This document shows, piece by piece, positions 1,274 through 58,952 of a DNA stretch of 64,000 bases. The stretch is from a virus (Duplodnaviria; Caudoviricetes). Every line of letters begins with the position of its first letter. Position 1 is the first letter of the stretch. The stretch covers positions 32,001 to 96,000 of IMG/VR virus record IMGVR_UViG_3300037991_006036; one strand, 5' to 3'. Both the position numbers and the translations under genes were made by a program. The notes under the pieces are model-generated. The model was not told where the DNA came from. It was given only the letters and a program-made list of their open reading frames with translations, and searched no databases.

Positions 1274-1300
1274 AGTGAATAATTTTTAGCTTTTTTTAGG

Positions 1301-2326: not shown

Positions 2327-2343
2327 GTGATTTGTTTTATGAA

Positions 2344-2423: not shown

Positions 2424-2472
2424 GTATGAAGAAAAACCAAAACGTGTTTTTATTGTGAAAAAGTTGAAGTAT

Positions 2473-3303
2473 TTACGCCATTGCTGGGGCTGGTGCATCT
2501 CCACCAGCTTGCATTTTTGCCTTGAGCTCTTTGTTATCCTTTATTGCTTTTTTAATGTACTTGATTAATTGCTTTCCAAGCACTATAAGCTCAAACCCTT
2601 TACCAATCATTGAAGTTATAGATATTATAATACCAATTATACTTGCTCCTGCAAGAGGAAAGTGTGAAATTCCAAGAATAAACAAAGCCACTACACCAAT
2701 AAACTTTACACCATAAGCTCCTATTTTTTGAGCATTAGGTCCACCACCCATTTTCCCTATAATCCACTCAATAGCTTGTCCAATTTTTTTCATTACCCAA
2801 CCGGATGCTTTCTTCAAGCTACCAACCATTGTCTCTGCTGCTTTTTTAGCTTTGTCAACTGGTACCTTTTTTCCTGTGACTTTTTCAATAGCTGTACAGA
2901 TAGCTTCAATAAATGCCATGTTTCCTAAAACAAGAGATACAACTGTCATGACAGTATCGACAACTCCTCCACCACTTTCGTTTACTAACCGTCTTTCTTT
3001 GACAGTAGGCAATTCTTTTTCAACATCGTCTGCATTAACTTTTGAGATATCACCACCCTTTTCGATAGCAGCCATCATCATTGCTGCTTGCACCTCTTCA
3101 TCATCCATATCCTCCCCATCCTTTTCTACCTCTTTAGACACTTTTAAGATGCCTTGATCGATACCTGATGGTATTCCAGCCTCCTTAAGCATTTTAGATG
3201 ACGATTTCATAGCTGCTGTAATTTCAGCTACCATTTTATTGAATTTACGCTCTCGCAAAATTCTGTATGTTATTTCAGATAAACTTAATGTTGGCTTATT
3301 CAT
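2473..3303 (-). CDS. Hypothetical protein with C-terminal hydrophobic helices; candidate internal head/ejection protein
   Basis: 276 aa between protease and scaffold; LSE/LRE/LKE/VNE sites; hydrophobic hairpin FIGVVALFILGI...IIGIIISITSMIG. Confidence 0.6.
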   Translation of the reverse strand: MNKPTLSLSEITYRILRERKFNKMVAEITAAMKSSSKMLKEAGIPSGIDQGILKVSKEVEKDGEDMDDEEVQAAMMMAAIEKGGDISKVNADDVEKELPTVKERRLVNESGGGVVDTVMTVVSLVLGNMAFIEAICTAIEKVTGKKVPVDKAKKAAETMVGSLKKASGWVMKKIGQAIEWIIGKMGGGPNAQKIGAYGVKFIGVVALFILGISHFPLAGASIIGIIISITSMIGKGFELIVLGKQLIKYIKKAIKDNKELKAKMQAGGDAPAPAMA

Positions 3304-3674
3304 TTCTTTTTGTTTTCAGTAAGATCGCTGAAGTTTACTAATATTGTGTTTCCATCAACATCTACTTCTAAACCTTTTTTTGATATTCCTTTTACTTCAC
3401 CTTCCCCAGCTCTCCAGTTTGTGTTGGTGTTGTATTTTTTTACAGCAGATGGATCAAAGAAAACTTTTAATGCTTCTTCACCACCACCTTTCTTGTCATC
3501 TTTTTTTTCTTCTTCACCTTTGTCACCGCCTTCATCACCACCAGCATCACCACCAGCATCTCCGCCACCTTCTTTTTCAGCAGCATCAGCAAATGGATTC
3601 TCAAGTAACTTGTACTCAAGCATTAATTCACCTAGGATATCTATTAGGGTGTTTTTATTAGTGACCAACTTCAT
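3300..3674 (-). CDS. Hypothetical head-module protein with GGD[A/E/K] repeats
   Basis: 124 aa, overlaps both neighbours, low-complexity GGDA linker. Confidence 0.7.
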   Translation of the reverse strand: MKLVTNKNTLIDILGELMLEYKLLENPFADAAEKEGGGDAGGDAGGDEGGDKGEEEKKDDKKGGGEEALKVFFDPSAVKKYNTNTNWRAGEGEVKGISKKGLEVDVDGNTILVNFSDLTENKKK

Positions 3675-4041
3675 AGTAGCGAGATAGATTGTTGCCCATC
3701 TCCTCGTATAAAGATTCTAGGCGTTGTTGCAATTTACCAATTTCAGAAACAGTTTTTGTGAATTCTTTATTGTTGTTGTTAAGCTCTTTCATGTTTCTTT
3801 TTACAGTCACTTCATCAAACCACTCTTCGGTTTCTTGTAGTGCTACACGTTCTGCTTTTTCGACAATTTCAGAAATTCTATTTGCAGCTTCTTTCAAACC
3901 TTCGCTACGATAAATTACCTCTTCAAAAGATCCGTACTCTCTAATTTCTTCAAGTACTTGAGCTTTTTCACTGAGCTTCATTTTTGTAGATGCTGCACCG
4001 TTAATTGCTTCGCTAAGTTGTTTTAATATATTTTTACTCAT
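3658..4041 (-). CDS. Hypothetical coiled-coil head-module protein
   Basis: ATG at 4041 overlaps the protease stop (ORF track starts at GTG 4044); helical; N-terminal LKQLSE. Confidence 0.75.
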   Translation of the reverse strand: MSKNILKQLSEAINGAASTKMKLSEKAQVLEEIREYGSFEEVIYRSEGLKEAANRISEIVEKAERVALQETEEWFDEVTVKRNMKELNNNNKEFTKTVSEIGKLQQRLESLYEEMGNNLSRYYEVGH

Positions 4042-4658
4042 CACATTACTGATATTATCTCACTTATTAGTGAGTTGATTTTTGTATACTTGTTATTGGT
4101 GTTTGAATTAACTCCTTCGTTTAACGACGGATTCATAAAAGCTCCTTGTGTTGATGGATTACTTACTAAATCCCAACATACGATTTCAAAGTCGTTTTGT
4201 ACCTCTACCTTTCCTTCACCTAATTCTTTTACCGATCCCATTCCTCGTGAGCTAATTCCCAATCTAATTCCACACTTTAATAGCTCCTTTGCAATGTTTC
4301 CAGATGGAGTTGATAAGATTTCAATTTTTCCCATCAAATCATTCCCTTGCCACCACAAATCTAATACATTGTGTGATACGTTAGATAGGTTTACTACTTG
4401 AGAGTCTGGATGATCTAGTTCACCTAATGCTCTACGTTCTTTTACAAAAGTATTTTTGTAATTTTCTGTTTCTTTTTTTAATATTGGTAATGGATAGCTT
4501 CTGCCATTTTGATTGAAGTTTTTATCCCCACCAGAGCTGCCTCGTTGCATTATACCCGATACGATAATTTTTCCATTGTTTTTGTTCATGGACTCGTTAA
4601 TCTGTTGAGGTGTTACCTCAATCGATCCTATATAATCAACTAAGACTGATTTGCTCAT
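4041..4658 (-). CDS. gp21: Prohead maturation protease (T4 gp21-like)
   Basis: Motifs NQNGRSYP, RRALGELDHP, VSH, LGISSRGMGS, WDLVSNPSTQGAF. Confidence 0.96.
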   Translation of the reverse strand: MSKSVLVDYIGSIEVTPQQINESMNKNNGKIIVSGIMQRGSSGGDKNFNQNGRSYPLPILKKETENYKNTFVKERRALGELDHPDSQVVNLSNVSHNVLDLWWQGNDLMGKIEILSTPSGNIAKELLKCGIRLGISSRGMGSVKELGEGKVEVQNDFEIVCWDLVSNPSTQGAFMNPSLNEGVNSNTNNKYTKINSLISEIISVM

Positions 4659-5401
4659 AATTCAAATGTTTTTTGGATGTTTTGAATGACCATTTCTGGT
4701 TGGTCAATATTCCCTAATGGTACTTCTTCGTTGTAATCCTGAAAAACTAAGTTACCTTTATCGTAATCTATTGCATGCGGTTCTCCGTTAATCATTACAT
4801 CAAACTCAAAATGATCTGCACCTATTGGATTGTAGTCTATGTCATTTGGTGTAAGTGTAGTAAGACCTGCATCTTTGAACATATCTAAAAGTTGTTCTTT
4901 AACTTGTCCAGCTACCGCTTCTTTCAAGTTATATAATTCGTTTGCTTTTTCGGATAATACCGATATGCGTTGGTGCATTTTTGCCAATGCTTCATTTGTA
5001 CGTTTCCAATGGATATTGTTATCCATCTTAGATTCGTTTTTTAGTTTAATGCTATGTTGAAGCATTCTTGCCAACTCTCTGATATTTTTGTTTACTTCTA
5101 AGATGTTTGCATTTACTTTCTGTACTGTAGATCGGGATTCATCTCGCTTAAACGCTTTGTACGATACTTCGTTTAATTTTACAGAATATTTAGGATTTCT
5201 TTTTTTTGGTCCTTTGATTGAGTATGCATATTCTGGATCAGTAAGATCAACTGATTGTGTTCCATCATCATCCTCATCACCAGTAAACGCGTTTGGTGTA
5301 TCATAAGTAGCAATGTTGGCTGTAGTGTTTTCTTTCATCTGAGCAGCCTGCTCTTTGATATACTTTTTCAATTCCTCTCTTTCTTCTAAACTCAATGCCA
5401 T
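4655..5401 (-). CDS. Hypothetical head-module protein
   Basis: Likely start ATG 5401 (MALSLEERE), just after the upstream stop; ORF track start is 5425. MKE, LNE and LKE sites separate its segments. Confidence 0.75.
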   Translation of the reverse strand: MALSLEEREELKKYIKEQAAQMKENTTANIATYDTPNAFTGDEDDDGTQSVDLTDPEYAYSIKGPKKRNPKYSVKLNEVSYKAFKRDESRSTVQKVNANILEVNKNIRELARMLQHSIKLKNESKMDNNIHWKRTNEALAKMHQRISVLSEKANELYNLKEAVAGQVKEQLLDMFKDAGLTTLTPNDIDYNPIGADHFEFDVMINGEPHAIDYDKGNLVFQDYNEEVPLGNIDQPEMVIQNIQKTFEL

Positions 5402-5402
5402 A

Positions 5403-6233
5403 CTATAATTCTTTAAGAAGTTCATGATACAATAACAACGAATGAACGTGATCTTCTTTAACGCGTTTTATTTTTTTGTTGTTATCTAGTAGGTTCATTA
5501 CCTCTGTCAATTTAATAGATATAACTTGGTCTTTAACTTGTGAAAGTTTTTTTGATAACTTTGCTTGAAGACTTGCGCTTTCTTTAATTACAAAGTCACG
5601 TAGAGTTGTTGTATTGCTAATATTGTTTATATATTCTCTCAACACTACTTGCTGATTGTCAGAAAGTTTAGCGTATTTAGTGTTAAACTTTTCTAACATT
5701 AATTTGTATGCTAATACTCTAACCTCCTCATCTTCTTGTAAAAACTCTTGCTTTTTGGTTGCAGGCTTTTCTGACACTTTGGTTATGTGTTCAGTAATGG
5801 TAGCTCTGCTTCTTACTACATCTGCTGCTTGTGAGATTGCAGCACCTTCAAATACTCTATAAACAGAAGCATATACTTTGTAGTTGTTTATAGTTGATTT
5901 GAAAAAATCTTTGAGATCGTAGTGTTTTTTGATCTCCTTAATCAAATCGTATTTGGAATTATTAAGCGCTTTTTCATTAAGACTTCTACGCATCTTAATT
6001 GTTGTGTTAAGCAACATCGTCGCTTTTTGTGGTGTCCTAAACTGCTCGTTTAGCAATGTTTGGTACAATACCAATTCTTTCGCCAAAGCTGTCTTAGCTG
6101 CGAAATATTCTTTTATTATTTTGAGTGCGGGAGAATTCTTTACACCAGTCATTGTGTCTGCTGTAATTTGTCTCGTTAGCAACTCAAAAAGAATTCCGGT
6201 ATTCTTTATTTTTGAGTGTGTCGACTTCTTCAT
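5403..6233 (-). CDS. Hypothetical head-module protein downstream of the portal
   Basis: 276 aa, helical, begins HSKIKNTGILFELLTRQIT; has its own late-motif copy at 6251-6258. Confidence 0.8.
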   Translation of the reverse strand: MKKSTHSKIKNTGILFELLTRQITADTMTGVKNSPALKIIKEYFAAKTALAKELVLYQTLLNEQFRTPQKATMLLNTTIKMRRSLNEKALNNSKYDLIKEIKKHYDLKDFFKSTINNYKVYASVYRVFEGAAISQAADVVRSRATITEHITKVSEKPATKKQEFLQEDEEVRVLAYKLMLEKFNTKYAKLSDNQQVVLREYINNISNTTTLRDFVIKESASLQAKLSKKLSQVKDQVISIKLTEVMNLLDNNKKIKRVKEDHVHSLLLYHELLKEL

Positions 6234-6250
6234 ATAATATATTACCTAAT

Positions 6251-6258
6251 AATAAATA
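6251..6258 (-). promoter_or_regulatory. Late promoter-like motif TATTTATT
   Basis: 17 nt before ATG 6233; one of 13 copies. Confidence 0.65.
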
Positions 6259-6276
6259 TGTCGGTTTTTTTTATTA

Positions 6277-8118
6277 TTACTCATCTAGCAGGTTTTCTTC
6301 ATTAAGAAGACCAGGTTTTTTTTCATCCTTAGTGTATGTACTTTGCAACGCAGCTGCTTTTAGGTTAGTTTTTAAACCTTTAAAGTTGTCTAGATTTTGT
6401 GCTTCGTACACCACTCTTCCAGCTGATTTATTTTGTTTGTGTCCCATAGGGTCCCATCCTAATGGATGAGCATGCTTACCGTATGTACCAGGTTCTTTTG
6501 GTCTTCCAGCTCCAGGCCATCCACCTTCAGGTACTTCCTTTTCATCATATCCTTTTGGTACTCCAGCATCACCTTTGTATAGGCTAGCTATATCGTGTGG
6601 AGTTCCAAATGATTGTCCAGATTTTTTTGGATCGTTACCTTCGGTTTTGATCTGTTCAATTCTAAACTGCTCTTGTGCATCTTTTGCAATCTGATCCTGC
6701 TCTTCCATCCATTGCTCAGGCTGCATATTGAATATGTGTTCGTAAGCCCAGAATCTGCTGAAAAGTTTTTTCTCAACTAGATCTCCTGCTAGAGTTGCTT
6801 TTTGAGTCCACAGCTCTAGTTTTTCTCTCTCGTAATATGTTGAAGGTGGTGTTAGTTTTAATGAAAAATCAACAATCTCTTCATCTGTAAATCCTTGTGC
6901 ATATAAGTGAACAATTGCTATTTTTGTTAATTCACTTACAATAATTTTTTGTACTCTTTCAATAGTTCTTGCAAATCTAAAATCTTGAGAAGCTAAAGAA
7001 GCCTTTCCAGTTGTATCTTCTAAAAATCCTAAATATGCTTTTGGAATTTTTAATGCACCTAACATTCTATTTTGTAGATACTCAATATCTGGAATTGCAT
7101 CCATTTGTAATCCTGGGGTTGTTTCTATCATTGTACCACTTTCTGCTCCACGAACCGGTAGATAGAAATCTTCAAGAATGTTTTGCATGTTGTACTTTAA
7201 GTTGTAATCTCCAGTACTTTCGTCAATAAATGGAACCTTTTTCATTTTATTAATCATACCTTCCATAAAAGTATCAACTTCATTAGGTGGTATATTACCA
7301 ATATCTATTTTGAAAATTCGTTTGTCGGGAGCTCTCATTATACGATGAATTAACATCGCATCTTCCATTAAAGTAAGTTGTTTCCACACTTTTCTTGCTG
7401 GCTCGAGTAAAGATCTACCATAAGGTAAAAAGTTTGTATCGTTTAACAATCTAAAATGTGCAATTTCGTAATTGTCATATTCTTCAGTGTCGTTACGGTA
7501 TATTGTAGATGGCGTTGCAACTCCACTCATTAAGTCTCTTTTAAAAGTTACTTTGTTTGGATTTTTTGGATCAATACCTTCTTCTCTAACCATTTCATAT
7601 GCTGAAATAGGTTCTACATTTGTGATACCAAACTTTTCTGTAATACTTAGGTGTAGATAAAAATCACCGTATTTGAGTGTGCTACGAACCCAAGGCCATA
7701 AATTAAATTCTACATTTATAATGTCATAAAACAAGTTATGAAGTACTTTGTGTATCTTATCATTATTAGTCATAATGGTAAGTGTATCTTCAAACTCATC
7801 TTTTGCAGTACATTCATCTGCATATATGTCTAATGCGGATGAGATGATACTATCAGAGTCCATTGCTTCATAATCTCTAAACAACTGGATTCTGGTAGCT
7901 TGAAGAATTTGACCGTTATTATATACTGTATTGATGCTCGTTCCATACATTCGATTGAATCGATCAATACGGCTATTGTTCTGTAAATTTCCTACAGATT
8001 GAAGATTGTCGGTATCAATTACTTTTAATTGCTTACCTCCAACATTACGAATAATTACATCAGTACTGAATAATCTTCGTAGTCTGTTAAATAAATTAGG
8101 TTTTTTTTCTTCTGCCAT
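6277..8118 (-). CDS. gp20: Portal protein (T4 gp20-like)
   Basis: Motifs LLEPARKVWKQLTLMEDAMLIHRIMRAPDKRIFKIDIGNIP, LEDFYLP, DIEY, ALKIP, RFARTIERVQ. Confidence 0.96.
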   Translation of the reverse strand: MAEEKKPNLFNRLRRLFSTDVIIRNVGGKQLKVIDTDNLQSVGNLQNNSRIDRFNRMYGTSINTVYNNGQILQATRIQLFRDYEAMDSDSIISSALDIYADECTAKDEFEDTLTIMTNNDKIHKVLHNLFYDIINVEFNLWPWVRSTLKYGDFYLHLSITEKFGITNVEPISAYEMVREEGIDPKNPNKVTFKRDLMSGVATPSTIYRNDTEEYDNYEIAHFRLLNDTNFLPYGRSLLEPARKVWKQLTLMEDAMLIHRIMRAPDKRIFKIDIGNIPPNEVDTFMEGMINKMKKVPFIDESTGDYNLKYNMQNILEDFYLPVRGAESGTMIETTPGLQMDAIPDIEYLQNRMLGALKIPKAYLGFLEDTTGKASLASQDFRFARTIERVQKIIVSELTKIAIVHLYAQGFTDEEIVDFSLKLTPPSTYYEREKLELWTQKATLAGDLVEKKLFSRFWAYEHIFNMQPEQWMEEQDQIAKDAQEQFRIEQIKTEGNDPKKSGQSFGTPHDIASLYKGDAGVPKGYDEKEVPEGGWPGAGRPKEPGTYGKHAHPLGWDPMGHKQNKSAGRVVYEAQNLDNFKGLKTNLKAAALQSTYTKDEKKPGLLNEENLLDE

Positions 8119-8132
8119 TCTTGTTTATTTTA

Positions 8133-8140
8133 TATAAATA
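8133..8140 (-). promoter_or_regulatory. Late promoter-like motif TATTTATA (portal)
   Basis: 14 nt before the portal ATG. Confidence 0.7.
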
Positions 8141-8142
8141 GG

Positions 8143-9708
8143 CTACAATAACCAATTCAAGTCTTCGTCCTTACCTTTTACATCCATTTTCCACGAATTG
8201 TTTTCGTGTGATGTTTTATATACAGCTGTGGATTTTGCATGATCCAAAGCTCTTTTTGTTAATTCAATTCCTGCCTGGCGTAGTTTTAATGCTGTGTCTC
8301 TTACCCATAATGCCATACACCAACTCATTACTAAATCATCATTGTATCCTTGTTGTGCTTCTGGTCTTGCGTTTCTCCATATGAATACGCCAAGTTCATC
8401 AAGAAGCCTTCTACTCCTTATTATACAACTTTTTTCTCTCATATACAACTCCATCTTGGAAATAATTAATGGTCGTACTTTTGAAGACATTGTAAAACCA
8501 GCTACCTGATCTTTGGTACGTTGTACATCTGTTGCTCGAGCTAGATATCTATCTGAGTCTAATCCAATATCTTTAGGTGTATAGTATAGGTTTTTATAAC
8601 CACGTTCAATTACTTGTTGAATTGTTGCCCATCCTATGTTTGCATTCTCAATGACTAGTAACGCATCGTTATATTCTGTTGCAATTGAAACAAGCATATT
8701 ACCATAATCTTTTGTAGTCACTTGTCCTTTATACTCAGCTACCTGAGATGCTTCTTCTAAATCAAAAACATGGAAAGCAGAATAATCTGTTCCATCACCA
8801 CGTGCAACGTCAGCCACTACTACATAATCCTTTGTGTAGTTTGGAATCTCCCACACCCACATATTACTATCAAATCCACGTTTTTCAATTGGATCTTGCA
8901 TATATGTCTGTCTATAGAAGTTTAACATTTCTGGGTGCACAACTGTGTTACCTGATGTGCTGAAATCACAATCACACTCTTGTGCTGCTAATCTAAGACC
9001 TAACTCTTCGTCTTGTCTGTCTCTCCACTCTTGATCTCTTTCTGGATGTACTTGCCATGGAAGTCTCTTGGTAAAGAATTGGTTTTGCCCTTCTTCGGAT
9101 TTCATCCATGTTTTGTGAAAAAAGTTACCAGTTCCATTGGGTGTGCTTAGTATAACACCTCTACCTCCAGTTGCTAGCGTTTGTTGTAGTGATGCCCACA
9201 ACTCTTCAGCATTGTCAACGAATGCAGCCTCATCAATAATAACTAAAGATAATGCTTCTGAACGTCCTGATGTTCCAGAGCTTGCTACAGCTTTTATTTG
9301 TGATCCGTTTGTTAATCTAAGTGACAGTTTGTTTTTTTCTGTTGTTTTTAGTTGTAGCCAACTTGGTAGATTTTCAAACATTACACTAACCTTTGTTACA
9401 AGGTTTTTTGATGTATTCTGATCGATTGCAACAACAAGTATGTTTTTATCGCTATGAAATAACATTGTCCATAAAGAATATCCTGCAGATAGTGTTGATA
9501 TTCCTAACTGTCGGGATTTCAAGATAATGACCCTATCATTTTCTTGCATATCATTAGTCAACTCTTCTTGATATGGATATAGCTTAAATGGTATTTTTCC
9601 TTTGGAAGGATGCTGGATCAAGCAATATTTTTTCATGAAGTATACTGGATCCTTAGCACATTTTACGTACTCAGTTTTGATCAGTTGCTTCAAGTTTACA
9701 TTGCTCAT
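8143..9708 (-). CDS. gp17: Terminase large subunit (T4 gp17-like)
   Basis: KLYPYQ, Walker A KSRQLGIST, Walker B IIDEAAF, STPNG, RNase-H-like DVARG...DYS, NDDLVM. Confidence 0.97.
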   Translation of the reverse strand: MSNVNLKQLIKTEYVKCAKDPVYFMKKYCLIQHPSKGKIPFKLYPYQEELTNDMQENDRVIILKSRQLGISTLSAGYSLWTMLFHSDKNILVVAIDQNTSKNLVTKVSVMFENLPSWLQLKTTEKNKLSLRLTNGSQIKAVASSGTSGRSEALSLVIIDEAAFVDNAEELWASLQQTLATGGRGVILSTPNGTGNFFHKTWMKSEEGQNQFFTKRLPWQVHPERDQEWRDRQDEELGLRLAAQECDCDFSTSGNTVVHPEMLNFYRQTYMQDPIEKRGFDSNMWVWEIPNYTKDYVVVADVARGDGTDYSAFHVFDLEEASQVAEYKGQVTTKDYGNMLVSIATEYNDALLVIENANIGWATIQQVIERGYKNLYYTPKDIGLDSDRYLARATDVQRTKDQVAGFTMSSKVRPLIISKMELYMREKSCIIRSRRLLDELGVFIWRNARPEAQQGYNDDLVMSWCMALWVRDTALKLRQAGIELTKRALDHAKSTAVYKTSHENNSWKMDVKGKDEDLNWLL

Positions 9709-9709
9709 T

Positions 9710-10132: not shown

Positions 10133-10409
10133 GTTGGTTTTGTATTTGTGTAATTTTAGTTTCAGTTGCATCAATTTGAATATCTAAAGCTGATATGTCT
10201 TCTTGATACGCTGTTATGATACTGTCTTTTTCAAACTGTCGATACTCCAATACAGATATCATATTTGTAAGACTATCAACAATTTGCTGATTTTCTTTTG
10301 TTAATCCGGTATTGCTTGTGGGTTGAGGTTTGACAAAATACCATGTAATGAACACAACTACAGCGGTGTATAGTGCCAGGAAGATAAGATGGAATTTGTT
10401 TAAAGTCAT
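10053..10409 (-). CDS. N-terminally anchored coiled-coil membrane protein; candidate i-spanin
   Basis: TM segment LIFLALYTAVVVFITWYFV followed by a periplasmic-type coiled coil. Confidence 0.55.
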   Translation of the reverse strand: MTLNKFHLIFLALYTAVVVFITWYFVKPQPTSNTGLTKENQQIVDSLTNMISVLEYRQFEKDSIITAYQEDISALDIQIDATETKITQIQNQHEEDLNNIERFTVTDLDEFFANRYKK

Positions 10410-10424
10410 AACTTATTATTAATT

Positions 10425-11828
10425 CTACTCGCTTTTAGCTTTGTAGTTTTTGTCTACGTAGTTAAAGAATTCCTTTTTCTTTTTGTCGTTTTTTAAATCG
10501 GCTGGTGAGCTTATGTCAAACTTCTTCAAAGCAGATTTAAAAAACTTTTGGTATTCAGTATCTTCTTTTAATCGCTTTACGATTGATTCTGTTTTTGCGT
10601 TCATTTTATTTTCGTTTATGGTACCTCCTAAATGATCCACCATTTCTTTGGTAAATTCTTCTAATTCTTGATCGTTGAGTTTTCTATATACTTTCTCGCG
10701 TAAATGTTTAATGAGTTTGGATGCTTCATCTAAACCTCTACCTTCATTAATAGGCTGACCATCGTCGTGATATGCTCCAGGCATATCCTCTTCATCATGT
10801 TTTTGCTCTTTGTCAGCATCATAAAATTTATCATTCTCGCTTAGTCCAGATGCGAGTTTTTCTAACCTTTCACGTTCTTGTTCTAGTGCTTGCAAGGTTT
10901 CGTCTGTTAAAGGCTCACCAAATCCACCAGTTTCTGTCTCAATTTGTTTATCAATAACTGCTATTTGTTTTCGAATAGCATTCTTATCTATATCCTCATT
11001 AAGTGACTCACTAACTCTTTTTCCCAACATTCCTAATCTTTCTAAATCTCTCAAATCTTTTATATACTCATCTGTTGTTGCAAGAATTGCTCCCATCTTA
11101 TCGTTTTGATCTTCGCCACCAAAAAAGTTAAGTTCAGTCACTCTTGGATTGAAGTTTTCTCCTCCCGGCTTATCTTTAAAGTTGGAGTTGTAATATTGAG
11201 TTTGATGTACTCCAAATGTTTGTCCAGAAGTTTCTGTAAATGTGTGATATTGAACATGCACAAACATTGGAGCATATTGTCCCATTCTTTTTTTGATTGG
11301 ACTATTATCACTAGCTTGTAAATTCGCTTTAGCTTTTGACATACTCTTTACAGCGTTTGGAAAGTATTTTGTAATAAATTCCATATCCTCGCTATCAGGC
11401 TTCTCACTTGCCATATCTGATATTAGCTTTGCGCCTGAGAAGTTGTTGTCTGTGTATTCTTTTAATGAATCCTTATCCATCATGCCATGCTTCTTCATAA
11501 GATCAGCTAACTTTTTTAAAGTTTCTTTATCTTTAGTAGATAACATTTTCAACTGTCTTTCTCTTTCTAACGCTTTCAATGCAGCTCCATAAGCTGATGT
11601 AGATTCGTCAACTTTTTGAGGTAATCCTTTATGTTTAGTTGAAGCATACTTATCTACATCTTTTTTTGTCATATCCTTAGCAGCATCTCCAGCTTTTCCT
11701 TTTTTAGGAATATCACCTTTTTGCATAGCCTTTACTACTCCAAAGAATTTTTGCTGTTGCTTAGATACAGCTTTTTCTTTGACCATAGCTTTTACAGTGT
11801 TTTCTATTAATGCATCTAATTTTTTCAT
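10425..11828 (-). CDS. Multi-module candidate internal head polyprotein with DUF3008-like module
   Basis: AVSKQQQKFFG...DVDKYASTKHKGLPQKV resembles DUF3008; modules are separated by VKE, VDE, LKE, LNE, LSE, INE, INE, LKE. Confidence 0.65.
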   Translation of the reverse strand: MKKLDALIENTVKAMVKEKAVSKQQQKFFGVVKAMQKGDIPKKGKAGDAAKDMTKKDVDKYASTKHKGLPQKVDESTSAYGAALKALERERQLKMLSTKDKETLKKLADLMKKHGMMDKDSLKEYTDNNFSGAKLISDMASEKPDSEDMEFITKYFPNAVKSMSKAKANLQASDNSPIKKRMGQYAPMFVHVQYHTFTETSGQTFGVHQTQYYNSNFKDKPGGENFNPRVTELNFFGGEDQNDKMGAILATTDEYIKDLRDLERLGMLGKRVSESLNEDIDKNAIRKQIAVIDKQIETETGGFGEPLTDETLQALEQERERLEKLASGLSENDKFYDADKEQKHDEEDMPGAYHDDGQPINEGRGLDEASKLIKHLREKVYRKLNDQELEEFTKEMVDHLGGTINENKMNAKTESIVKRLKEDTEYQKFFKSALKKFDISSPADLKNDKKKKEFFNYVDKNYKAKSE

Positions 11829-12229
11829 CGTAGACTATCTTCTTTTACTCTTTGTAGAATTGTTAATTTGTCTTGGTTTCCGTAACCAAAACTTTCTAAC
11901 ATATCAACTACTATTGCAACTATATCAGTCTGATCTACTTCAGCAGTAGCATCTTTGAGTTTTTTAATATACAGATCAGTAAGTTCTTGTAATTCTTCAT
12001 CAAGACCTGGCTCATCCTCTTCTCCTGCTTCTGGATCTTCGGTAGGCTCCTCAGTTGGTTCCTCGGCTGGTTCTTCTGCAGGCTCCTCTGTAGGTTCTTC
12101 AGTAGGCTCTTCTTCTGGAGTTTCTTCTTCCGGTGCACCTCCTGCTCCTTCATTAACTACATTGTAAAGCTCACGTCTTATAAGTTCACGAATCAATGCT
12201 TTTTGTAATTGTTTTTTTGTGTACTTCAT
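11825..12229 (-). CDS. Acidic hypothetical protein with EEP[T/A] repeats; candidate internal head protein
   Basis: 134 aa; leader ...LIRELIRRELYNVVNE followed by a Glu/Pro linker. Confidence 0.7.
   Translation of the reverse strand: MKYTKKQLQKALIRELIRRELYNVVNEGAGGAPEEETPEEEPTEEPTEEPAEEPAEEPTEEPTEDPEAGEEDEPGLDEELQELTDLYIKKLKDATAEVDQTDIVAIVVDMLESFGYGNQDKLTILQRVKEDSLR
12029..12112 (-). repeat. 12-bp-period coding tandem repeat (about 7 EEPT/EEPA units)
   Basis: Encodes EEPTEEPTEEPAEEPAEEPTEEPTEDPE with synonymous variation between units. Confidence 0.85.
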
Positions 12230-12633
12230 TTTATTGCATTTTTAAACTTCACATCTTCTCCAGAGAAATTCTTCTTGTCTTCTGAGTCAAACATTATACC
12301 TTCAAGAGTAGCGTATCCGTCTTTCTCTTTTTTTACAATTTTGCAAATTGTTGCATCTAATTTTTCTAATCCGTTTAACACATAAACTAATCCAAACATG
12401 CAATATTTTTTAGAGCATTTAGCGACAATATATGCTTTAGATACTACAAGACCCATATCACCAAAATTAGTAAGATCTGCTGTGTATATCTTTACGTCAT
12501 CCTTTACTCCAACGTAATCAAATAATACATCATATCCGTCGTTAAGTTCTGCAAACTTGCGAACGTAATCTACCCACTCTGTTCCGTCGTTTTCATTTAT
12601 TGGTTGTAGTGGTAATAAGTCTTTTAATTTCAT
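12226..12633 (-). CDS. Hypothetical protein; candidate internal head protein
   Basis: 135 aa; leader MKLKDLLPLQPINE. Confidence 0.7.
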   Translation of the reverse strand: MKLKDLLPLQPINENDGTEWVDYVRKFAELNDGYDVLFDYVGVKDDVKIYTADLTNFGDMGLVVSKAYIVAKCSKKYCMFGLVYVLNGLEKLDATICKIVKKEKDGYATLEGIMFDSEDKKNFSGEDVKFKNAIK

Positions 12634-12636
12634 AGT

Positions 12637-13527
12637 TTATATTTTAATTCCAGCTCTGTGTTGGAATGTTTCTTTTAAGTGTGATTCTACGTCTTGGCTG
12701 TAGGGTGGTAAAACATCTGCAGTTCCTTTGTTTAGATGCCCTACAACATCTTTCACTTTTTCTGCATCAATAACTGGCATATCTTTTCTTTCTGGAGCAC
12801 CTTGCATTTTTTGTTTTACAAGTTTTCCGGCATTGTCTGCCATTATGGCCATTCCTTTTTCTGAATCTCCATTTGCTCCTGGAACCTTTCCTAATGCTAT
12901 TTTTACTTCTTCAGGTGACAGATGAGGCCATTGTTTCAATCCTTGTTCTGTACCGTCTTTTAAAGCATATTTAATTGCATTTTGTACTTTGTCTCCAGTA
13001 AAGTTTGCTACATCACCCTTTCCTTTATTTCCTACATCAATACCTAACTTACCTTTTGTCATAGCATTAAGAGCTGATATAAGTTGTTGGCCTGGCAAAT
13101 CCAATTTTGTTACAGCTACTTTTGCACTTGGTGATAATAATGTTGCTGCTGCCCATCTATGGTGTCCATCCATAATAAAGTCGTCTTTAGACACGATAGC
13201 TTCCATGTTTGCTAAGTCAGGAGCACCATTTTTTGCTTTAACTTCTTTGAAATCGTTAAAAGCATATCCTAAAGCAAATGCTACTGCTTTTGATACAATC
13301 ACTTCTTTTTGTGCAGGCTTGAGTTGACTTACTGGGATTGCATCAGGACCTCCATCGATAACATCATCCTCTTTATTGCCATCATCTAATCCACCTCCGA
13401 TTGCATCTCCTGCTAGATCTTTATCCATCTTACTTAGACCAATTGCTTTTGGATTGTTGAATACATCCGCTTCAGATAAAATATCTTTACGCATATTATT
13501 GATAGTATTACCTAACGACTTCTTCAT
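12637..13527 (-). CDS. ParB/sulfiredoxin-like domain protein
   Basis: IPVSQLKPAQ...AIVSKDDFIMDGHHRWAA. Probable start is ATG 13527, 3 nt after a late motif (ORF track start 13560). Confidence 0.75.
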   Translation of the reverse strand: MKKSLGNTINNMRKDILSEADVFNNPKAIGLSKMDKDLAGDAIGGGLDDGNKEDDVIDGGPDAIPVSQLKPAQKEVIVSKAVAFALGYAFNDFKEVKAKNGAPDLANMEAIVSKDDFIMDGHHRWAAATLLSPSAKVAVTKLDLPGQQLISALNAMTKGKLGIDVGNKGKGDVANFTGDKVQNAIKYALKDGTEQGLKQWPHLSPEEVKIALGKVPGANGDSEKGMAIMADNAGKLVKQKMQGAPERKDMPVIDAEKVKDVVGHLNKGTADVLPPYSQDVESHLKETFQHRAGIKI

Positions 13528-13530
13528 ACT

Positions 13531-13538
13531 TATAAATA
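13531..13538 (-). promoter_or_regulatory. Late promoter-like motif TATTTATA
   Basis: 3 nt before ATG 13527. Confidence 0.6.
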
Positions 13539-14012
13539 TTACCATTTTCTGCAAGACCAATATCTTGCTTTAGTTTTTGGTCCTGGATTATCGCAATTGT
13601 GTCTTGCTCTGAAAGACTTACGTCGGTTAGGATTGCTTTTTTTAATTTTCATTCCTTTTTGACCAAAATTGACTTTTTTTGCTTTTATAGTACCGTCTGC
13701 ATTCTTTTTGCCTGAGTTGACAAATACCTTGAATTTTTTCACGTCACCACGCATAATCTTGTTTAGCTTTACTGTACGACCAGCGTACTTAGCTTCTTGA
13801 AAAACTACCGGTTCAGAGTGTTCGACTATTTCTAATCTTAAACTCTCATTTTGATATACAACAGTTTCTTTTGCATTAATTCTCTTTCCAGCTTTGACTG
13901 CAGCTTTGTATGCTTTAGATCCTTTAGGAGATGATTTTTCTCCTCGAGCTTTTTTAGCTCTGATGTTGTGCCACAATCCTTTATTCTCCTTTAGGTTGTT
14001 TTTCTTCTCCAT
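13539..14012 (-). CDS. Highly basic phage protein (GLWxNI module plus RRKSFRARHNC...ARYWSC module)
   Basis: Lys/Arg-rich; the two modules are preceded by LKE and FQE respectively; ATG at 14012. Confidence 0.7.
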   Translation of the reverse strand: MEKKNNLKENKGLWHNIRAKKARGEKSSPKGSKAYKAAVKAGKRINAKETVVYQNESLRLEIVEHSEPVVFQEAKYAGRTVKLNKIMRGDVKKFKVFVNSGKKNADGTIKAKKVNFGQKGMKIKKSNPNRRKSFRARHNCDNPGPKTKARYWSCRKW

Positions 14013-14514
14013 CAATTTTATCTTTTAACTTACCGACAATTTCTTCTAACTTTTCTATCTCTTTGTCGATATATTCGCTCATAATTTTATTGTCGGGATT
14101 AGCCCATTTTTCAATTTTTCCTTTTTCTGAAACATGTGTGTTTTCAGCTGAGCTTTCCTTAAATTCCTGCAAGCCAGCTTTAACCTCTTTTAAATACGTT
14201 TTAGCATTTTCATACTTTTTCTTCGCATTAAATTCTTTTTTTAGCCCTTTCGCTCTCAACTTATGTTGATCCCAAACAACACAATCAAAACACTTACGAT
14301 CAGTTTTCCAAAACTTGGCATCTAATCGATTATTCATTTTCTTACCACAACATGGACATGCTAAAGGAACCAAAAAGTCTTTTCTAGCTTTATCCATTTT
14401 TGTAACTGTTCTTTTTATGCCGTTTTTAATTGTCCATGTTTTACCACTTTCTTCCCAAATATCACCCTCTACACGCTCGACATATTTTTTTCTTGTAACC
14501 TTAATTTTTTTCAT
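13981..14514 (-). CDS. Hypothetical zinc-finger protein
   Basis: CPCC...CFDC motifs, 177 aa. Confidence 0.7.
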   Translation of the reverse strand: MKKIKVTRKKYVERVEGDIWEESGKTWTIKNGIKRTVTKMDKARKDFLVPLACPCCGKKMNNRLDAKFWKTDRKCFDCVVWDQHKLRAKGLKKEFNAKKKYENAKTYLKEVKAGLQEFKESSAENTHVSEKGKIEKWANPDNKIMSEYIDKEIEKLEEIVGKLKDKIDGEEKQPKGE

Positions 14515-14813
14515 TATCGTGCTTTTGCATTAAATTTTTCTAACACTTCTTCTACTCTCTTATCAAACTTTCTCAAAGCTCTACGTAGTTCTAATTTCAT
14601 AGCTTCTGCAAGTTTCTTTTCTTCATCCTTGTCAGCTACTGTTCTGTAAAACTCTTTACCTCCTACAGATGACATTGTTATAGTGAATGAGAATTCTGGC
14701 TTGCCATCCTCTCCTACCTCAGAGAATTGAGGGTCGTAATGTAACGTCATATTTGTGTTTGGTGACGTTGCAATTGCTTCTTTTTTTTCGCTTAAAAGTT
14801 TTTTTAATTCCAT
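14514..14813 (-). CDS. Hypothetical protein; candidate internal head protein
   Basis: 99 aa; leader MELKKLLSE; translationally coupled to neighbours. Confidence 0.7.
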   Translation of the reverse strand: MELKKLLSEKKEAIATSPNTNMTLHYDPQFSEVGEDGKPEFSFTITMSSVGGKEFYRTVADKDEEKKLAEAMKLELRRALRKFDKRVEEVLEKFNAKAR

Positions 14814-17074
14814 TATCTTCCGAATTTTAAATATCCTAATATTTGATTCACTGGTGCAAACGCTCCAGTTAATTTGTACAGTTTTCCTTTGTGTTTAAAC
14901 ACTATACCTTCTGATGGCACGATAGCATCAAATCCTCCAATCTTTTCTAATCTTTTTAGTTGAGTTTTGAGAAAACGTAAAGGTGCATCATCGTCTTGTA
15001 ATTTGTCATTACTAGCTTTTGCCTTTAATTGCTCGATTGCACTTGCCAATTCTCTTTTCATCTTAGCTACAGAGTCGTTTGGATTAATTGCTACTAAACC
15101 TTCTAACCCCTTCAACACAAAAACTCCTAATTTTAAAAAGATGTCTTCTATTGGTTCTACTGCTATTTTTTTCTGATCACGTACACCACCACCTTTGTCC
15201 ATATCGTTAAACCATTGTAAAAACTCAGGGTTATCTATAGACTTTTTTAATATTCTTAGATTTGGATCTTTTGATCCAAAAGCCCATCTGTTAATTATAT
15301 TTTGAAGTACATCGTCTGGTATATCGTATTTGTAAGTTTTAGCATTATTTTTGATAAAACTAGACCAAAAGTTTTGAAAATATAATCCAAGTTTATCGCT
15401 TTTTGTTAGTTGGTATTTACCTCTGACGTTGTTAAGGTCTTTGATTAGTTGTTCTTTTTGATCTTCGTAATCTTCAGTCTTTTTGAGATCAACTAAGTCT
15501 GTAGCTCTTATTTCGTATGTATCTTGTTTTGATGCTTCAACTCGATCCAATGCTTGTTGTATTTTTGAAGGAGCTTCGCTATCACTTCCAATAACATTTC
15601 CGTTTTCGTCATACTCTTGAACATTATGCATTCTTAGCTGAGTTACACCATAAGCAGCTACATTTTCGCTAGCTGGATGTAACAACTCCATATTTACAAA
15701 CTTAGTACCATTTGCAAAAAATTCTTCTTTTTCTGTTGGATTAAGTTTAGATATAGCGTCAGTCATATCTTGCATTGCATCAAGAAATGCGTTACGAACA
15801 TTGTCTGGTAGATGCTGCATTGACTTTTCCATATCTGTTTTAGTCATTGCTTTTTCTGCTCCATTTTTCAATTGTCCTTTATTTCTAGCTGATAACACTT
15901 TACCATCTTTGTAAGTTACCATTAAATTTTGACCATCTAATTTTTCTTGAGCATATTCAACTTTACCGCTCAAAGCTGCATCTATCATATCTTCGATATC
16001 ATCAAACGTCATATCCATATCTTCGTATGGATGTGCCATGTGTCCAGCTGCTCCTCCCTCTTTTAAAAGTGTACGACTTTCGTTGACAGCTAAAAGTTCT
16101 GCAGGAGTTTCGATATCTTGAAACGCTGAGGGTGTCAGTGTTTTCTTTAGCATAGGCATTCTAGCCAATAACAAATAGATCACACCTCCAGGCAACACAG
16201 ATGCTGCTGAAAATCCAGCTAACTTTAATACATCTTTTAGTTGATCACCTATGGCTGTTCTTTCTGATTTTGATAATGTTTCACCATTTTTAACTGCGTC
16301 AGCTATCTTGAGAAATGCCACTTTTGTTTCTTGACCTTCTTGTTTTAATTTTTCAATAAATGATTTGAATTTACCTTTAAGTTGGTCAAAATATTTTCGT
16401 AAAACTACTTCATCCAAAGTAGACTGGGAGTGGCCCTCCAGAGTCTTTTTTTTTACGAGTAGATCAAATATGTCTCTAAGTTGTGAATCTGAAGTTACAC
16501 TTGGATAGTTTGTTTTGAAGTTATCGTAATCGTTTGCAGATAAATCAGATCTAAGCTGAGAAGCGGAGATTGGTTTACCGTTTTGGTCATCTGTTCTTTT
16601 TTTATAAAAAAGCGGTCTTGATTTGTCCAACGGTAATTCAACAACATCTACACCATCTTTGTGATATTTGCCATCTGCCTGATGTTGATCTACAAAACCA
16701 CGAATACGATCATAATCACTTCCCTTACTACTAGAACCTAACGCGTATGATTCTCCTGGTTGTGCTTTTTCTTCAATATATTTGTAAGCTGTTAGTAGTG
16801 GGCTTGGATATCTTGATCTTTCTACTCTAATGTTTTGAGTTCCAGCTAACAACTTTTCCCACACTTTCTCACTATCTTCGAGTGTAATTCCATCACGCTC
16901 TTTTGGTCCGATAAGAATAACAACCTCCTTTACTTGTGGCATTTCTTCATACCCCTTTGCAAGTGATAAATGACCTTCATGTGGAGGTTTGAATCCTCCA
17001 GGCAACATTACAGTAATTCCCTCTTCAACTTCGTTGAGAATACTTTCAACTAGAAATTTTGATAATTCGTTCAT
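14813..17074 (-). CDS. Three-module protein: HxGH nucleotidyltransferase + LETM1-like domain + KxDG ligase-like nucleotidyltransferase
   Basis: PGGFKPPHEGH and ISASQLR (cytidylyltransferase-like fold); QLKDVLK...LPGG...LTPSAF (LETM1-like); GGAAGHMAHP, EKLDG, EGIVF, YKLTG (DUF6267-like/covalent NTase motifs). Confidence 0.75.
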   Translation of the reverse strand: MNELSKFLVESILNEVEEGITVMLPGGFKPPHEGHLSLAKGYEEMPQVKEVVILIGPKERDGITLEDSEKVWEKLLAGTQNIRVERSRYPSPLLTAYKYIEEKAQPGESYALGSSSKGSDYDRIRGFVDQHQADGKYHKDGVDVVELPLDKSRPLFYKKRTDDQNGKPISASQLRSDLSANDYDNFKTNYPSVTSDSQLRDIFDLLVKKKTLEGHSQSTLDEVVLRKYFDQLKGKFKSFIEKLKQEGQETKVAFLKIADAVKNGETLSKSERTAIGDQLKDVLKLAGFSAASVLPGGVIYLLLARMPMLKKTLTPSAFQDIETPAELLAVNESRTLLKEGGAAGHMAHPYEDMDMTFDDIEDMIDAALSGKVEYAQEKLDGQNLMVTYKDGKVLSARNKGQLKNGAEKAMTKTDMEKSMQHLPDNVRNAFLDAMQDMTDAISKLNPTEKEEFFANGTKFVNMELLHPASENVAAYGVTQLRMHNVQEYDENGNVIGSDSEAPSKIQQALDRVEASKQDTYEIRATDLVDLKKTEDYEDQKEQLIKDLNNVRGKYQLTKSDKLGLYFQNFWSSFIKNNAKTYKYDIPDDVLQNIINRWAFGSKDPNLRILKKSIDNPEFLQWFNDMDKGGGVRDQKKIAVEPIEDIFLKLGVFVLKGLEGLVAINPNDSVAKMKRELASAIEQLKAKASNDKLQDDDAPLRFLKTQLKRLEKIGGFDAIVPSEGIVFKHKGKLYKLTGAFAPVNQILGYLKFGR

Positions 17075-30857: not shown

Positions 30858-30867
30858 TTTATTTTAT

Positions 30868-58944: not shown

Positions 58945-58952
58945 TATAAATA
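58945..58952 (-). promoter_or_regulatory. Late promoter-like motif TATTTATA
   Basis: 16 nt before the tail fibre ATG. Confidence 0.7.

Follow-up and report, generated by a model that had tools for sequence, protein, structure and literature searches.

The window, that is, the whole 64,000-nucleotide stretch of DNA analysed here, comes from an uncultured marine phage that is T4-like and belongs to the Immutovirus / Mel-JY01 neighbourhood. It holds the phage's head-assembly module and, beside it, a series of late genes that appear to encode proteins addressed to the prohead; we give this explanation, with loading, cutting and partial delivery at infection taken together, a probability of roughly two in three. 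Protease-motif-ended N-terminal tags occur on most genes flanking the head module, and swappable modules are joined at the same motif; for these reasons the tagged proteins probably enter the capsid and are processed inside it, as in T4 but on a larger scale. The analysis itself establishes how the sequences are organised, that the protease and two cleavage sites are homologous to those of T4, that the leaders are conserved and motif-specific, and that sites coincide with linkers and module junctions. The portal is ~25% identical to T4-group portals, and the clade is distant from T4; our literature search found no paper on this phage clade.

The head module and its protease

The genes between the capsid protein and the portal encode the following products, in which "site" denotes the tripeptide [ILV]xE:

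2..1273, minus strand: major capsid protein, gp23 family (Pfam Gp23, 1e-44), cut by the window edge (N-terminal 424 aa)
1301..2326, minus strand: 341-aa acidic scaffold-like protein in the gp22 position; pI ~4.2, 15 sites
2473..3303, minus strand: 276-aa leader protein; LSE10, LRE18, VAE27; long hydrophobic segments in the C-terminal half
3300..3674, minus strand: 124-aa acidic core protein; LGE16, LLE25; 12/12 distinct family N-termini positive
3658..about 4041, minus strand: 127-aa acidic core protein; LSE12; 11 sites, 8.6 per 100 aa
4041..4658, minus strand: prohead maturation protease, T4 gp21 family (Peptidase_S77); self-sites INE22, LNE181
4655..5425, minus strand: 256-aa head-core protein; LEE15, IKE25; 26/27 distinct family N-termini positive
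5403..6233, minus strand: 276-aa head-core protein adjoining the portal; leader ends LFE17; 14 sites, 5.1 per 100 aa

Judged by its matches to Pfam PF03420 (7e-27), phrog_207 (5e-51) and PDB 5JBL (3e-16), and by catalytic residues His83 and Ser136/137 that are invariant with T4 gp21, the protease is a genuine gp21-type enzyme. The sites that the initial annotation had reported, INE22 and LNE181 in the protease and LKE55|G in the capsid protein, are all present. LNE181|G aligns with the C-terminal site ITE|S of T4 gp21, and across the clade it has L/V/I/M at P3, an invariant E at P1 and G/S/N at P1'. The capsid propeptide contains LFE5, LLE30, LLE46 and LKE55|G; the last aligns with LTE65|A of T4 gp23, and LLE30|G and LLE46|N also match sites of the T4 propeptide in the alignment. 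In 16 clade members the capsid maturation site keeps L/I/V at P3, an invariant E at P1 and G/A/N at P1'.

The core proteins carry sites as densely as T4 gp67, gp68 and gp22 do. The 341-aa protein is called scaffold-like from its position between the protease and capsid-protein genes, its composition and its site density. Compared with T4 IPs, gp22 and gp68, the cargo and scaffold proteins have no sequence similarity, which holds for the 341-aa protein against gp22 (none detectable) and for the 5403..6233 protein, whose family carries the site on 25/26 distinct N-termini, against gp68. For the scaffold and core proteins this lack of similarity counts against our reading. The 2473..3303 product, with 5/5 distinct family N-termini positive, is a candidate ejected membrane-active protein. 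Membrane proteins had been proposed as a class of cargo; this product alone pairs a leader with hydrophobic segments, and both of the ORFs at 9710-10409, which encode membrane or secreted proteins, are leaderless and unlikely to be cargo.

Leaders on the genes flanking the terminase and portal

Further tagged genes lie upstream of TerL and, in one case, near the far end of the window, with copies of a promoter-like motif:

17092..17100, minus strand: late-promoter-like motif [AC]TATTTAT[AT], 18 nt upstream of the 753-aa gene
14813..17074, minus strand: 753-aa tagged multi-domain protein; leader helix with sites LVE10, LNE15, VEE18
14514..14813, minus strand: 99-aa protein; 9-residue leader ending LSE9
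13981..14514, minus strand: 177-aa basic Cys-rich protein; IWE21; leader status doubtful
13539..about 14012, minus strand: 157-aa very basic protein, mature pI ~10.7; LKE10 leader, basic N-module, IVE, DUF5754-like C-module
12637..13527, minus strand: 296-aa protein of unassigned family with a DGHHR motif; 19-residue leader ending LSE
12226..12633, minus strand: 135-aa protein; 14-residue type-A leader ending INE14
11825..12229, minus strand: 134-aa acidic protein; double-site leader IRE15, VNE27
10425..11828, minus strand: 467-aa cassette polyprotein; invariant leader LIE9, VKE18; invariant basic C-terminal cassette
62892..63764, minus strand: 290-aa protein; type-A leader ending LSE13, with Cys14 directly next
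13531-13539, 9716-9724 (TerL), 8133-8141 (portal), 6251-6259 (5403 gene) and 63777-63785: further copies of the promoter-like motif

All leader peptides previously listed for these genes were recovered at their genes, on the minus strand. Twelve of the 15 genes flanking TerL and the portal (head-core plus upstream-of-TerL) have a site at residues 5-20, against ~4.6 expected from shuffling each protein's own first 40 residues (P=0.003 and 0.008 for these two groups). The same shuffle applied to the genome's other 101 genes gave 24 positives against 18.9 expected, which is not significant.

These figures bear on the possibility that only the portal-to-capsid proteins are protease substrates (scaffold and core, as T4 gp22, gp67 and gp68), the genes upstream of TerL encoding ordinary cytoplasmic late enzymes and small proteins whose amphipathic first helices, rich in Lys, Leu and Glu in so AT-rich a genome, would produce an N-terminal [ILV]xE as a by-product. 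The region is indeed Glu-rich (9.1% versus 5.4% elsewhere), and nucleotidyltransferase and RNA-ligase enzymes are normally cytoplasmic in phages; moreover, a tripeptide is a weakly informative motif, and individual instances, such as IWE21 or triplets in folded cores, may be chance. Nevertheless, we consider this explanation unlikely, since the enrichment persists after shuffling of the proteins' own first 40 residues and conservation at the family level is confined to [ILV]xE. Across 82 related loci the trait is bimodal, being present in either 0.8-1.0 or 0-0.35 of family members, and is conserved in 13/34 families, whereas seven control tripeptides ([ILV]xD, Ex[ILV], [ILV]xK, [ILV]xQ, [ILV]xN, [AGS]xE and KxE) are conserved in just 0-4/34. 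[ILV]xD, which exceeded expectation in one redundancy-prone count and to that extent favours a by-product, did not do so at the family level; [AGS]xE, with a ratio of 0.62, is depleted and conserved in 0/34 families.

The leaders share a register of Lys at P5/P6, hydrophobic residues at P7 and P4, L/I/V at P3 and Glu at P1. In 410 distinct leaders P3 is L (0.52), I (0.33) or V (0.15), with hydrophobic P4 and P7, while control triplets in TerL and the portal use I, V and L evenly at P3. The leaders are common to the proteins at the peptide level and not at the DNA level, as the tagged genes use different synonymous codons and have unrelated DNA upstream. When a PSSM was trained solely on relatives, it flagged 36/136 proteins of the phage's own genome, against 6.8 expected, and 13 of them are encoded between 1301 and 17074.

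Also contrary to a by-product, leader lengths differ while the site stays just ahead of the conserved body. Orthologs of the 12226..12633 gene have leaders of 10-14 residues with the site kept, and those of 14514..14813 keep it directly ahead of the conserved body. Among 120 environmental homologs of the 296-aa protein (36-100% identity), a site ends at residues 5-25 in 105/108 distinct N-termini, again just ahead of the body; in the window copy LSE is at residue 30 from a TTG start (12637-13560) and at residue 19 if counted from the ATG located after the promoter-like motif. None of these homologs has a Pfam domain or a name, and the "ParB-like" label given to this gene lacks Pfam, PHROG or named-homolog support. 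The leader moreover behaves as an optional add-on that is missing in some homologs, which also argues against a by-product; homologs of the 753-aa protein are in part leaderless, beginning at strand beta-1. Two genes fit the leader pattern less well. The N-terminal site of the 13539 gene is absent from some close orthologs, which counts against our reading, and IWE21 of the 13981..14514 gene is doubtful, as it falls within a conserved EGDVWE motif and 17/31 distinct family members are positive; distant orthologs have a separate 7-residue leader absent from this copy.

The leader pattern first described from this window is real, and larger than had been seen, with two further leader clusters outside the window; the accompanying proposal of packaging, cutting and delivery is supported in part. 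One of the outside clusters, made up of small genes, is preceded by a repeated element other than the promoter-like motif; it may not be late, which counts against our reading.

Sites at linkers and module joints

Internal sites had been said to fall at domain boundaries, and this holds for the linkers of the 753-aa protein, the cassette junctions of the 467-aa protein and the joints of gene fusions. The 753-aa protein comprises an HxGH nucleotidyltransferase domain (~20-208), a helical middle (222-307) and an RNA-ligase-like domain (346-753; KxDG Lys378), with Foldseek matches to NaMNAT/PPAT and Rnl1/Trl1-type ligases; the nucleotidyltransferase named by the initial annotation is present, but as part of a protein that is also an RNA-ligase-like enzyme. 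In its AF2 model (pLDDT 77) the only low-confidence segments are 11-17, 209-222 and 308-345, and all three hold sites (LNE15; LDE222; VNE332/LKE339). L4, L8, E15, L337 and E339 are nearly invariant among 20 homologs, while the triplets at 50, 73, 102, 146 and 487 sit in folded cores and may be chance.

The 467-aa polyprotein is built of cassettes of ~40-150 aa bounded by VDE75, LKE124, VSE274/LNE278, INE362 and INE406, and 10/14 of its sites fall in low-pLDDT segments; cassette 19-75 has a weak DUF3008 match. In the family alignment, blocks are present or absent between the invariant leader and the invariant C-module, and [ILVM]xE lies within 4 residues of the gap junction in 22/32 cases, against 6.8 expected.

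Genes that are separate in the window are fused in relatives, with sites at the joints. The 99-aa module is fused behind another domain in loci L026, L028 and L029, with the joint VKE|NLTE|. The 134-aa protein, in which the leader is followed by an acidic Pro/Glu-rich spacer, LDE78/LQE82 and a conserved C-module, is fused to the C-terminus of 296-aa homologs in L013, L016, L017, L020 and L022, with sites flanking the joint. The C-module of the 13539 gene, with a weak Pfam DUF5754 match, stands behind six different N-modules in relatives, always with [ILV]xE directly before it; in the window copy this is IVE, residue 65 counted from the TTG start. The same site thus precedes the same module as a gene start or as an internal joint, and linker composition does not predict a hydrophobic P3 in disordered linkers; both points weigh further against a by-product of composition.

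Proposed loading, cutting and fate of the cargo

The promoter-like motif that precedes the structural genes also stands at the head of the run upstream of TerL. Of its copies in the genome, 32 are on the coding strand and 4 on the opposite one; at least 21 precede start codons by 4-33 nt, including those of the sheath-size, tube-size, TerL and portal genes; the copy at 63777-63785 is 13 nt upstream of the 62892..63764 gene. We propose that the genes from 17074 down to 10425 and from portal to capsid protein would be co-transcribed with the structural genes from [AC]TATTTAT[AT]-type promoters. Each product would begin with a short amphipathic leader of ~8-25 residues, which would bind the scaffolding core as it forms on the portal. 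Once the gp23-type shell is closed, the gp21-type serine protease would cut after Glu in [LIV(M)]-x-E, removing the 55-residue propeptide of the capsid protein, trimming its own two ends and fragmenting the acidic core proteins. It would also strip the leaders and cut multi-module proteins at their linker sites, so that individual enzymes and small proteins, basic or acidic, would be set free within the head, and some of this cargo would exit with the DNA at infection. Core binding, cleavage, head retention and injection are steps that we infer from sequence.

T4 offers the closest parallel. Its gp21 cleaves at L/I-X-E, and in its CTS targeting was mapped to residues 4 and 7 and processing to residues 8 and 10 (PMC9026906); the CTS of IPII and IPIII, with hydrophobic residues at 4 and 7, Ile8 and Glu10, has the register of the leaders described here. 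The two systems share the protease family with its catalytic His/Ser, a gp23-family capsid protein with an aligned maturation site, hydrophobic-x-Glu specificity, and leaders (10-19 residues in the same register, hydrophobic 4/7, L/I at 8 and Glu10) of which one is common to unrelated proteins (in T4, IPI, IPII, IPIII and Alt), Alt being a precedent for a packaged enzyme. In contrast to the ~4 cargo proteins of T4, ~30 genes carry predicted tags here. There are also at least two leader types, a P3 that may be Val and, at calibrated sites, Met, many cargo genes directly upstream of TerL, and cassette polyproteins with sites at the joints, whose cassettes are swapped, dropped or split into genes among relatives.

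Giant phages (phiKZ, 201phi2-1 and SPN3US, with gp175/gp245 proteases and inner-body or ejection proteins) likewise have a diverged gp21-type protease that cuts after Glu, in 19 head proteins of 201phi2-1 (PMC9026906), as well as redundant propeptide sites and a virion RNA polymerase that is packaged and ejected (PMC9026906). However, their motif is S/A(/G)-x-E, whereas small P3 residues are depleted here; the present genome is much smaller, and the region has no inner-body paralog families or vRNAP genes.

The leader might instead have nothing to do with the capsid and act in docking or regulation, for example as a shared helix for oligomerisation or chaperone binding, as a degron, or as an inhibitory propeptide of the zymogen type that is cleaved off in the cytoplasm. 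Leaders do occur on genes distant from the head module, and one protein has a catalytic Cys directly after the leader Glu, which fits activation by cleavage; the 290-aa protein has a weak acyltransferase/Ntn-hydrolase-type match. We hold this to be very improbable, given that in both specificity and register the motif fits the gp21-type protease that the phage itself encodes, that T4 gp21 is active in the prohead only (PMC9026906), that leaders are densest around the head module, and that no second protease candidate was seen in the region.

Somewhat less improbable, though still a little below the by-product explanation, is that the proteins are loaded and cut without delivery to the host, serving in the head (DNA condensation, an inner-body-like scaffold, head-size control or pressure management) and staying in the capsid or being expelled as fragments before packaging. 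In favour, many of the products resemble T4 internal peptides and core fragments (PMC9026906) in being small and strongly basic or acidic (pI 4.1-10.7), and several would be cut to pieces of 40-150 residues. Against this, the nucleotidyltransferase/RNA-ligase, HAD/PNK-phosphatase-like and Ntn-hydrolase-like proteins have no obvious role inside a capsid, and the CTS-bearing IPs and Alt of T4 are ejected (PMC9026906). The main explanation itself meets two objections: a load of ~30 tagged proteins, one of them a 735-residue enzyme, would be unusual in size and bulk for a genome of at least 122 kb, and passage through the tail would have to involve unfolding of large folded enzymes.

The hypervariable internal-protein loci of T-even phages (ref 69 in PMC9026906), with CTS-like leaders on diverse basic proteins, also combine variable, fast-evolving proteins with a conserved leader. 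Those loci are known only from close T4 relatives of enterobacteria and encode a few single-module basic proteins, whereas the present clade is distant and carries multi-module chains. Such a pairing of variable proteins with a conserved leader suggests plug-in loading of changeable cargo.

The head module and its protease

The window is phage DNA with its genes essentially all on the minus strand, and it covers bases 32001-96000 of one contig, 122,293 bp long. A T4-type head module occupies positions 1-17074 (minus strand), with the following composition.

Features of the head module (window coordinates)
14813-17074, minus strand: 753-aa protein, first in transcription order
14514 down to 10425, minus strand: seven smaller genes, after the 753-aa gene
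9710-10409, minus strand: two membrane or secreted ORFs
8143-9708, minus strand: TerL
6277-8118, minus strand: portal
5403-6233 and 4655-5425, minus strand: two putative core proteins, after the portal
4041-4658, minus strand: prohead protease
3658-4044, 3300-3674 and 2473-3303, minus strand: three small proteins
1301-2326, minus strand: acidic scaffold-like protein
2-1273, minus strand: gp23-family capsid protein, extending past the window edge

The closest deposited phages, Flavobacterium phage immuto and Microcystis phage Mel-JY01, share this gene order and have portals 50-55% identical to the one described here. Hundreds of relatives are present in IMG/VR, of which 80 loci were taken for comparison. 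Searches of Pfam and PHROG with the putative cargo proteins returned mostly no annotation.

The gp21-type protease postulated in the initial annotation is present: the product of 4041-4658 belongs to Peptidase_S77 (Pfam PF03420, 7e-27), matches the T4 gp21 structure 5JBL (3e-16), and in alignment with T4 gp21 retains invariant His83 and Ser136/137 at the catalytic positions. Its LNE181/G (the slash marking the proposed cut) aligns with the C-terminal ITE/S of gp21. The capsid protein matches PF07068 (1e-44), and its LKE55/G, also pointed out in the initial annotation, falls on LTE65/A of T4 gp23, the known maturation cut; two additional sites in the capsid propeptide also align with gp23, and all of 16 clade members keep the Glu homologous to T4 Glu65. 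At the two T4-homologous sites (capsid protein and protease), the clade has an invariant Glu at P1, L, I or V (plus Met) at P3, and G, A, S or N at P1'. The conserved residues thus calibrate the likely cutting rule of the protease, [LIVM]-x-E followed by G/A/S/N.

Assignment of the scaffold and core proteins is provisional and draws on position, acidity and site density, the only features that agree with T4. The homology to gp22, gp67 and gp68 expected of T4-type scaffold and core proteins was not found: BLASTP gave E > 6 both for 1301-2326 compared with gp22 and for 5403-6233 compared with gp68, and in this respect the proteins differ from the T4 system.

The two overlapping ORFs at 9710-10409, directly upstream of TerL, have counterparts in the equivalent place in Mel-JY01. 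One has an N-terminal transmembrane segment and the other is signal-peptide-like from an internal Met; a role in lysis or superinfection exclusion is conceivable. Because of their signal or transmembrane N-termini, and having no leader, they are unlikely to be cargo, so the earlier inclusion of membrane proteins among the packaged proteins does not extend to this pair.

N-terminal leaders and their register

Every leader peptide quoted in the initial annotation is present at the gene to which it was assigned. As a within-genome null, each protein's own first 40 residues were shuffled, and a site was required to end at residues 5-20. By this measure, an N-terminal [ILV]xE site occurs in six of the seven head-core genes (2.1 expected) and in six of the eight genes upstream of TerL (2.5 expected); the other 101 genes of the genome include 24 with a site, 18.9 being expected. 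Families were then defined in relatives from the protein bodies, and the fraction of distinct members carrying the site was recorded. The distribution is bimodal: 80-100% of distinct members are positive in the head-core and most upstream families, against 0-35% in TerL, portal, membrane protein, PhoH and tail-side families.

With each family counted once, 13 of 34 conserve the N-terminal [ILV]xE, compared with 0-4 of 34 for the control tripeptides [ILV]xD, Ex[ILV], [ILV]xK, [ILV]xQ, [ILV]xN, [AGS]xE and KxE. In raw counts over redundant family sets, [ILV]xD had seemed enriched, as had Ex[ILV] among the controls; this was misleading, for [ILV]xD partly as a result of the leader consensus itself, and family-level counts were used instead. 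A position-specific scoring matrix (PSSM) trained on relatives only flags 36 of the 136 proteins of this genome (6.8 expected), 13 of them within 1301-17074. Three neighbouring genes at 59671-62895 encode proteins of 374, 277 and 335 aa that have the first ~50 residues, a charged region, in common and diverge beyond it; two are leader-positive by the PSSM (IRE14 and LQE22).

The 296-aa protein (12637-13560) was compared with 120 environmental homologs; of their 108 distinct N-termini, 105 have the site just before the conserved body. The site of the 177-aa protein (13981-14514) is doubtful, as IWE21 lies inside a conserved motif and only 17 of 31 distinct family members are positive. Distant orthologs of this protein in nine loci of the comparison set (L035, L040, L042, L045, L048, L053, L055, L057 and L061) begin with a leader of 7 residues, MKK-x-I-[SP]-E, and also have ~25 additional residues, both features being absent from the window copy; it looks as if a leader was gained or lost within one family.

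A sequence logo of 410 distinct clade leaders shows hydrophobic residues at P7 and P4, Lys at P5 and P6, L (0.52), I (0.33) or V (0.15) at P3, and Glu at P1, whereas I, V and L are about equally frequent in control triplets taken from within TerL and portal. In a 10-residue leader, P7, P4, P3 and P1 correspond to residues 4, 7, 8 and 10, which is the register of T4, where IPII and IPIII (T4 record) have a 10-residue leader with Tyr4, Phe7, Ile8 and Glu10. T4 gp21 cuts after Glu in L/I-X-E, and the internal protein propeptides, 10-19 residues long, are capsid targeting sequences (CTS) in which residues 4 and 7 have been mapped to targeting and residues 8 and 10 to processing; the CTS has also been suggested as a possible evolutionary means of loading varied proteins (PMC9026906). 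As in the T4 CTS, short leaders ending in L/I-x-E precede otherwise unrelated proteins here, and they are conserved as peptide, not as DNA.

Two further runs of small genes with near-identical leaders lie outside the window, at genome positions 101961-106318 (L083:5961-10318) and 117344-121797 (L084:7344-11797), L083 and L084 being stretches of the same genome. Two types of leader occur there, both with [ILV]xE at the end, and one of them has a double site (e.g. ...RLQE-LAGIKE). One product is a HAD/PNK-phosphatase-like enzyme (Pfam DUF2608/HAD; phrog_415) whose DxDxT begins ~10 residues past the leader. A DNA repeat could have been the source of these shared leaders, but the DNA upstream of the genes is unrelated and the leader codons differ at synonymous positions, which rules out this origin and identifies the shared element as a peptide signal.

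Internal sites, module joints and enzyme identities

The claim that internal sites fall at domain boundaries is supported by structural models, alignment gaps and gene fusions. The model of the 753-aa protein, built with 20 homologs, has a mean pLDDT of 77 and exactly three low-confidence segments (11-17, 209-222 and 308-345), which hold LNE15, LDE222 and VNE332/LKE339, while five other triplets lie within confident domains; 4 of 11 sites thus fall in 7.8% of the length (binomial P ~0.008, by our own arithmetic). In the 467-aa family (10425-11828), the leader (L7, I8, E9) and the C-terminal module are invariant, and the blocks between them are present or absent. [ILVM]xE lies within four residues of 22 of 32 gap junctions, against 6.8 expected, although the aligned rows are related and do not represent 32 independent events; at least 8 distinct junction types are found. 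The model of this protein is weak (pLDDT 59.5), with 10 of 14 sites in low-confidence segments that bound confident modules.

Fusions mark the same joints. The 99-aa module (14514-14813) stands alone in the window behind LSE9 and is fused behind another domain in three loci, with VKE/NLTE/ at the joint. The DUF5754-like module (C-terminal in 13539-14012) follows six different N-modules, always with [ILV]xE immediately before it, and relatives have the 134-aa gene (11825-12229) fused to 296-aa protein homologs, where the joint is flanked by sites on either side. The ends of BLAST high-scoring pairs, which are noisy junction markers compared with the clearer alignment gaps and explicit fusion junctions, gave a weaker but concordant result (21 of 52 near a site, 14.2 expected, P=0.02).

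By fold and signature residues, the 753-aa protein is predicted to combine an HxGH nucleotidyltransferase (NMNAT/PPAT-like) with an Rnl1/Trl1-type RNA ligase. The ligase-like domain carries the invariant KxDG lysine; the signature residues H35 and K378/D380/G381 are invariant, and Foldseek gave target-normalised TM scores of 0.6-0.69 to NaMNAT/PPAT and probabilities of 0.9-0.98 to RNA ligases. Homologs of the ligase-like half occur in the huge uncultured phages LR756508 and LR756500 (460-480 kb), and those of the nucleotidyltransferase half in Prevotella Lak megaphages (28-56% coverage, about 30-34% identity); the two halves therefore travel separately across very different phages. The label "ParB-like" given to 12637-13560 is not supported: the protein has no Pfam match, ParBc included, at E<=0.01, its sole PHROG match, phrog_2859, is of no known function, and none of its 120 listed homologs has a Pfam domain or a name.

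Expression signals and biological interpretation

The T4 late promoter TATAAATA is not enriched on the coding strand (14 copies, 9 expected). The real signal is its complement on that strand, [AC]TATTTAT[AT], with 32 copies across the whole genome against 4 on the other strand; at least 21 copies precede a start codon by 4-33 nt.

Examples of [AC]TATTTAT[AT] in the window
17092-17100, 9716-9724, 8133-8141, 6251-6259, 58945-58953 and 63777-63785, coding strand

The motif precedes the sheath-size, tube-size, TerL and portal genes, the genes at 5403 and 62892-63764, and the 753-aa gene, which opens the upstream run. It is a candidate late promoter that would leave very short 5' leaders. A motif common to structural genes and the upstream run fits the description of the latter as late genes, insofar as it acts as a promoter. 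A separate repeated element of ~60 nt occurs at genome positions 30860-30935, 108104-108202, 113516-113596 and 114426-114520, each copy preceding a gene (starts at 30859, 108103, 113515 and 114425). It comprises a TTGCAAAA-like box, a conserved stretch with the inverted repeat CTTTAC..GTAAAG, and an A-rich tail that stops shortly before the ATG; an early or middle promoter-operator is one possibility, an RNA element another.

The association of [ILV]xE with N-terminal leaders and module joints is real and holds up both statistically and comparatively. Its most likely explanation (probability roughly 0.68) is capsid targeting and prohead-protease processing of the T4 type, here applied to many genes and also to cassette polyproteins, judging from the S77 protease, the gp23-type propeptide site, the L/I-x-E leaders and the leader register, all shared with T4. 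The inner-body/ejection maturation of phiKZ-like phages, which cuts at S/A/G-x-E, does not match this pattern: N-terminal [AGS]xE is rarer than expected (ratio 0.62), none of the 34 families conserves it, and the calibrated sites have L/I/V/M at P3. Within the T4-type explanation, we hold the protease-related nature of leaders and joints to be the more probable part and delivery at infection the less probable one. For a genome of this size, ~30 loaded proteins, one of them an enzyme of 735 residues, would be a large cargo. Literature searches covering the clade (CTS, virion proteomes) and Mel-JY01 found no paper or proteome.

More tentatively, and with the odds somewhat against the proposal as a whole, ~30 of the 136 genes (about a quarter) could encode plug-in capsid cargo, built from one T4-type leader and interchangeable modules flanked by protease sites, with cargo added, dropped, split and fused exactly there. 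The resulting preloaded toolkit would include an RNA-repair-type ligase/nucleotidyltransferase, a phosphatase, a cut-activated Ntn hydrolase and small basic DNA binders, and would act in the host before phage gene expression.

If the T4-type explanation is confirmed, the T4 capsid-targeting/gp21 principle would reach well past the T-even phages, to marine and freshwater phages of a clade that is both large and abundant, and protease sites would serve as evolutionary joints for swapping virion cargo. Many proteins of unknown function would become candidates for the first molecules delivered by the phage, in counter-defence or host take-over. Mature N-termini can be predicted from the leaders together with the calibrated rule ([LIVM]-x-E, then G/A/S/N), and such predictions would improve the annotation of thousands of environmental phage genes.
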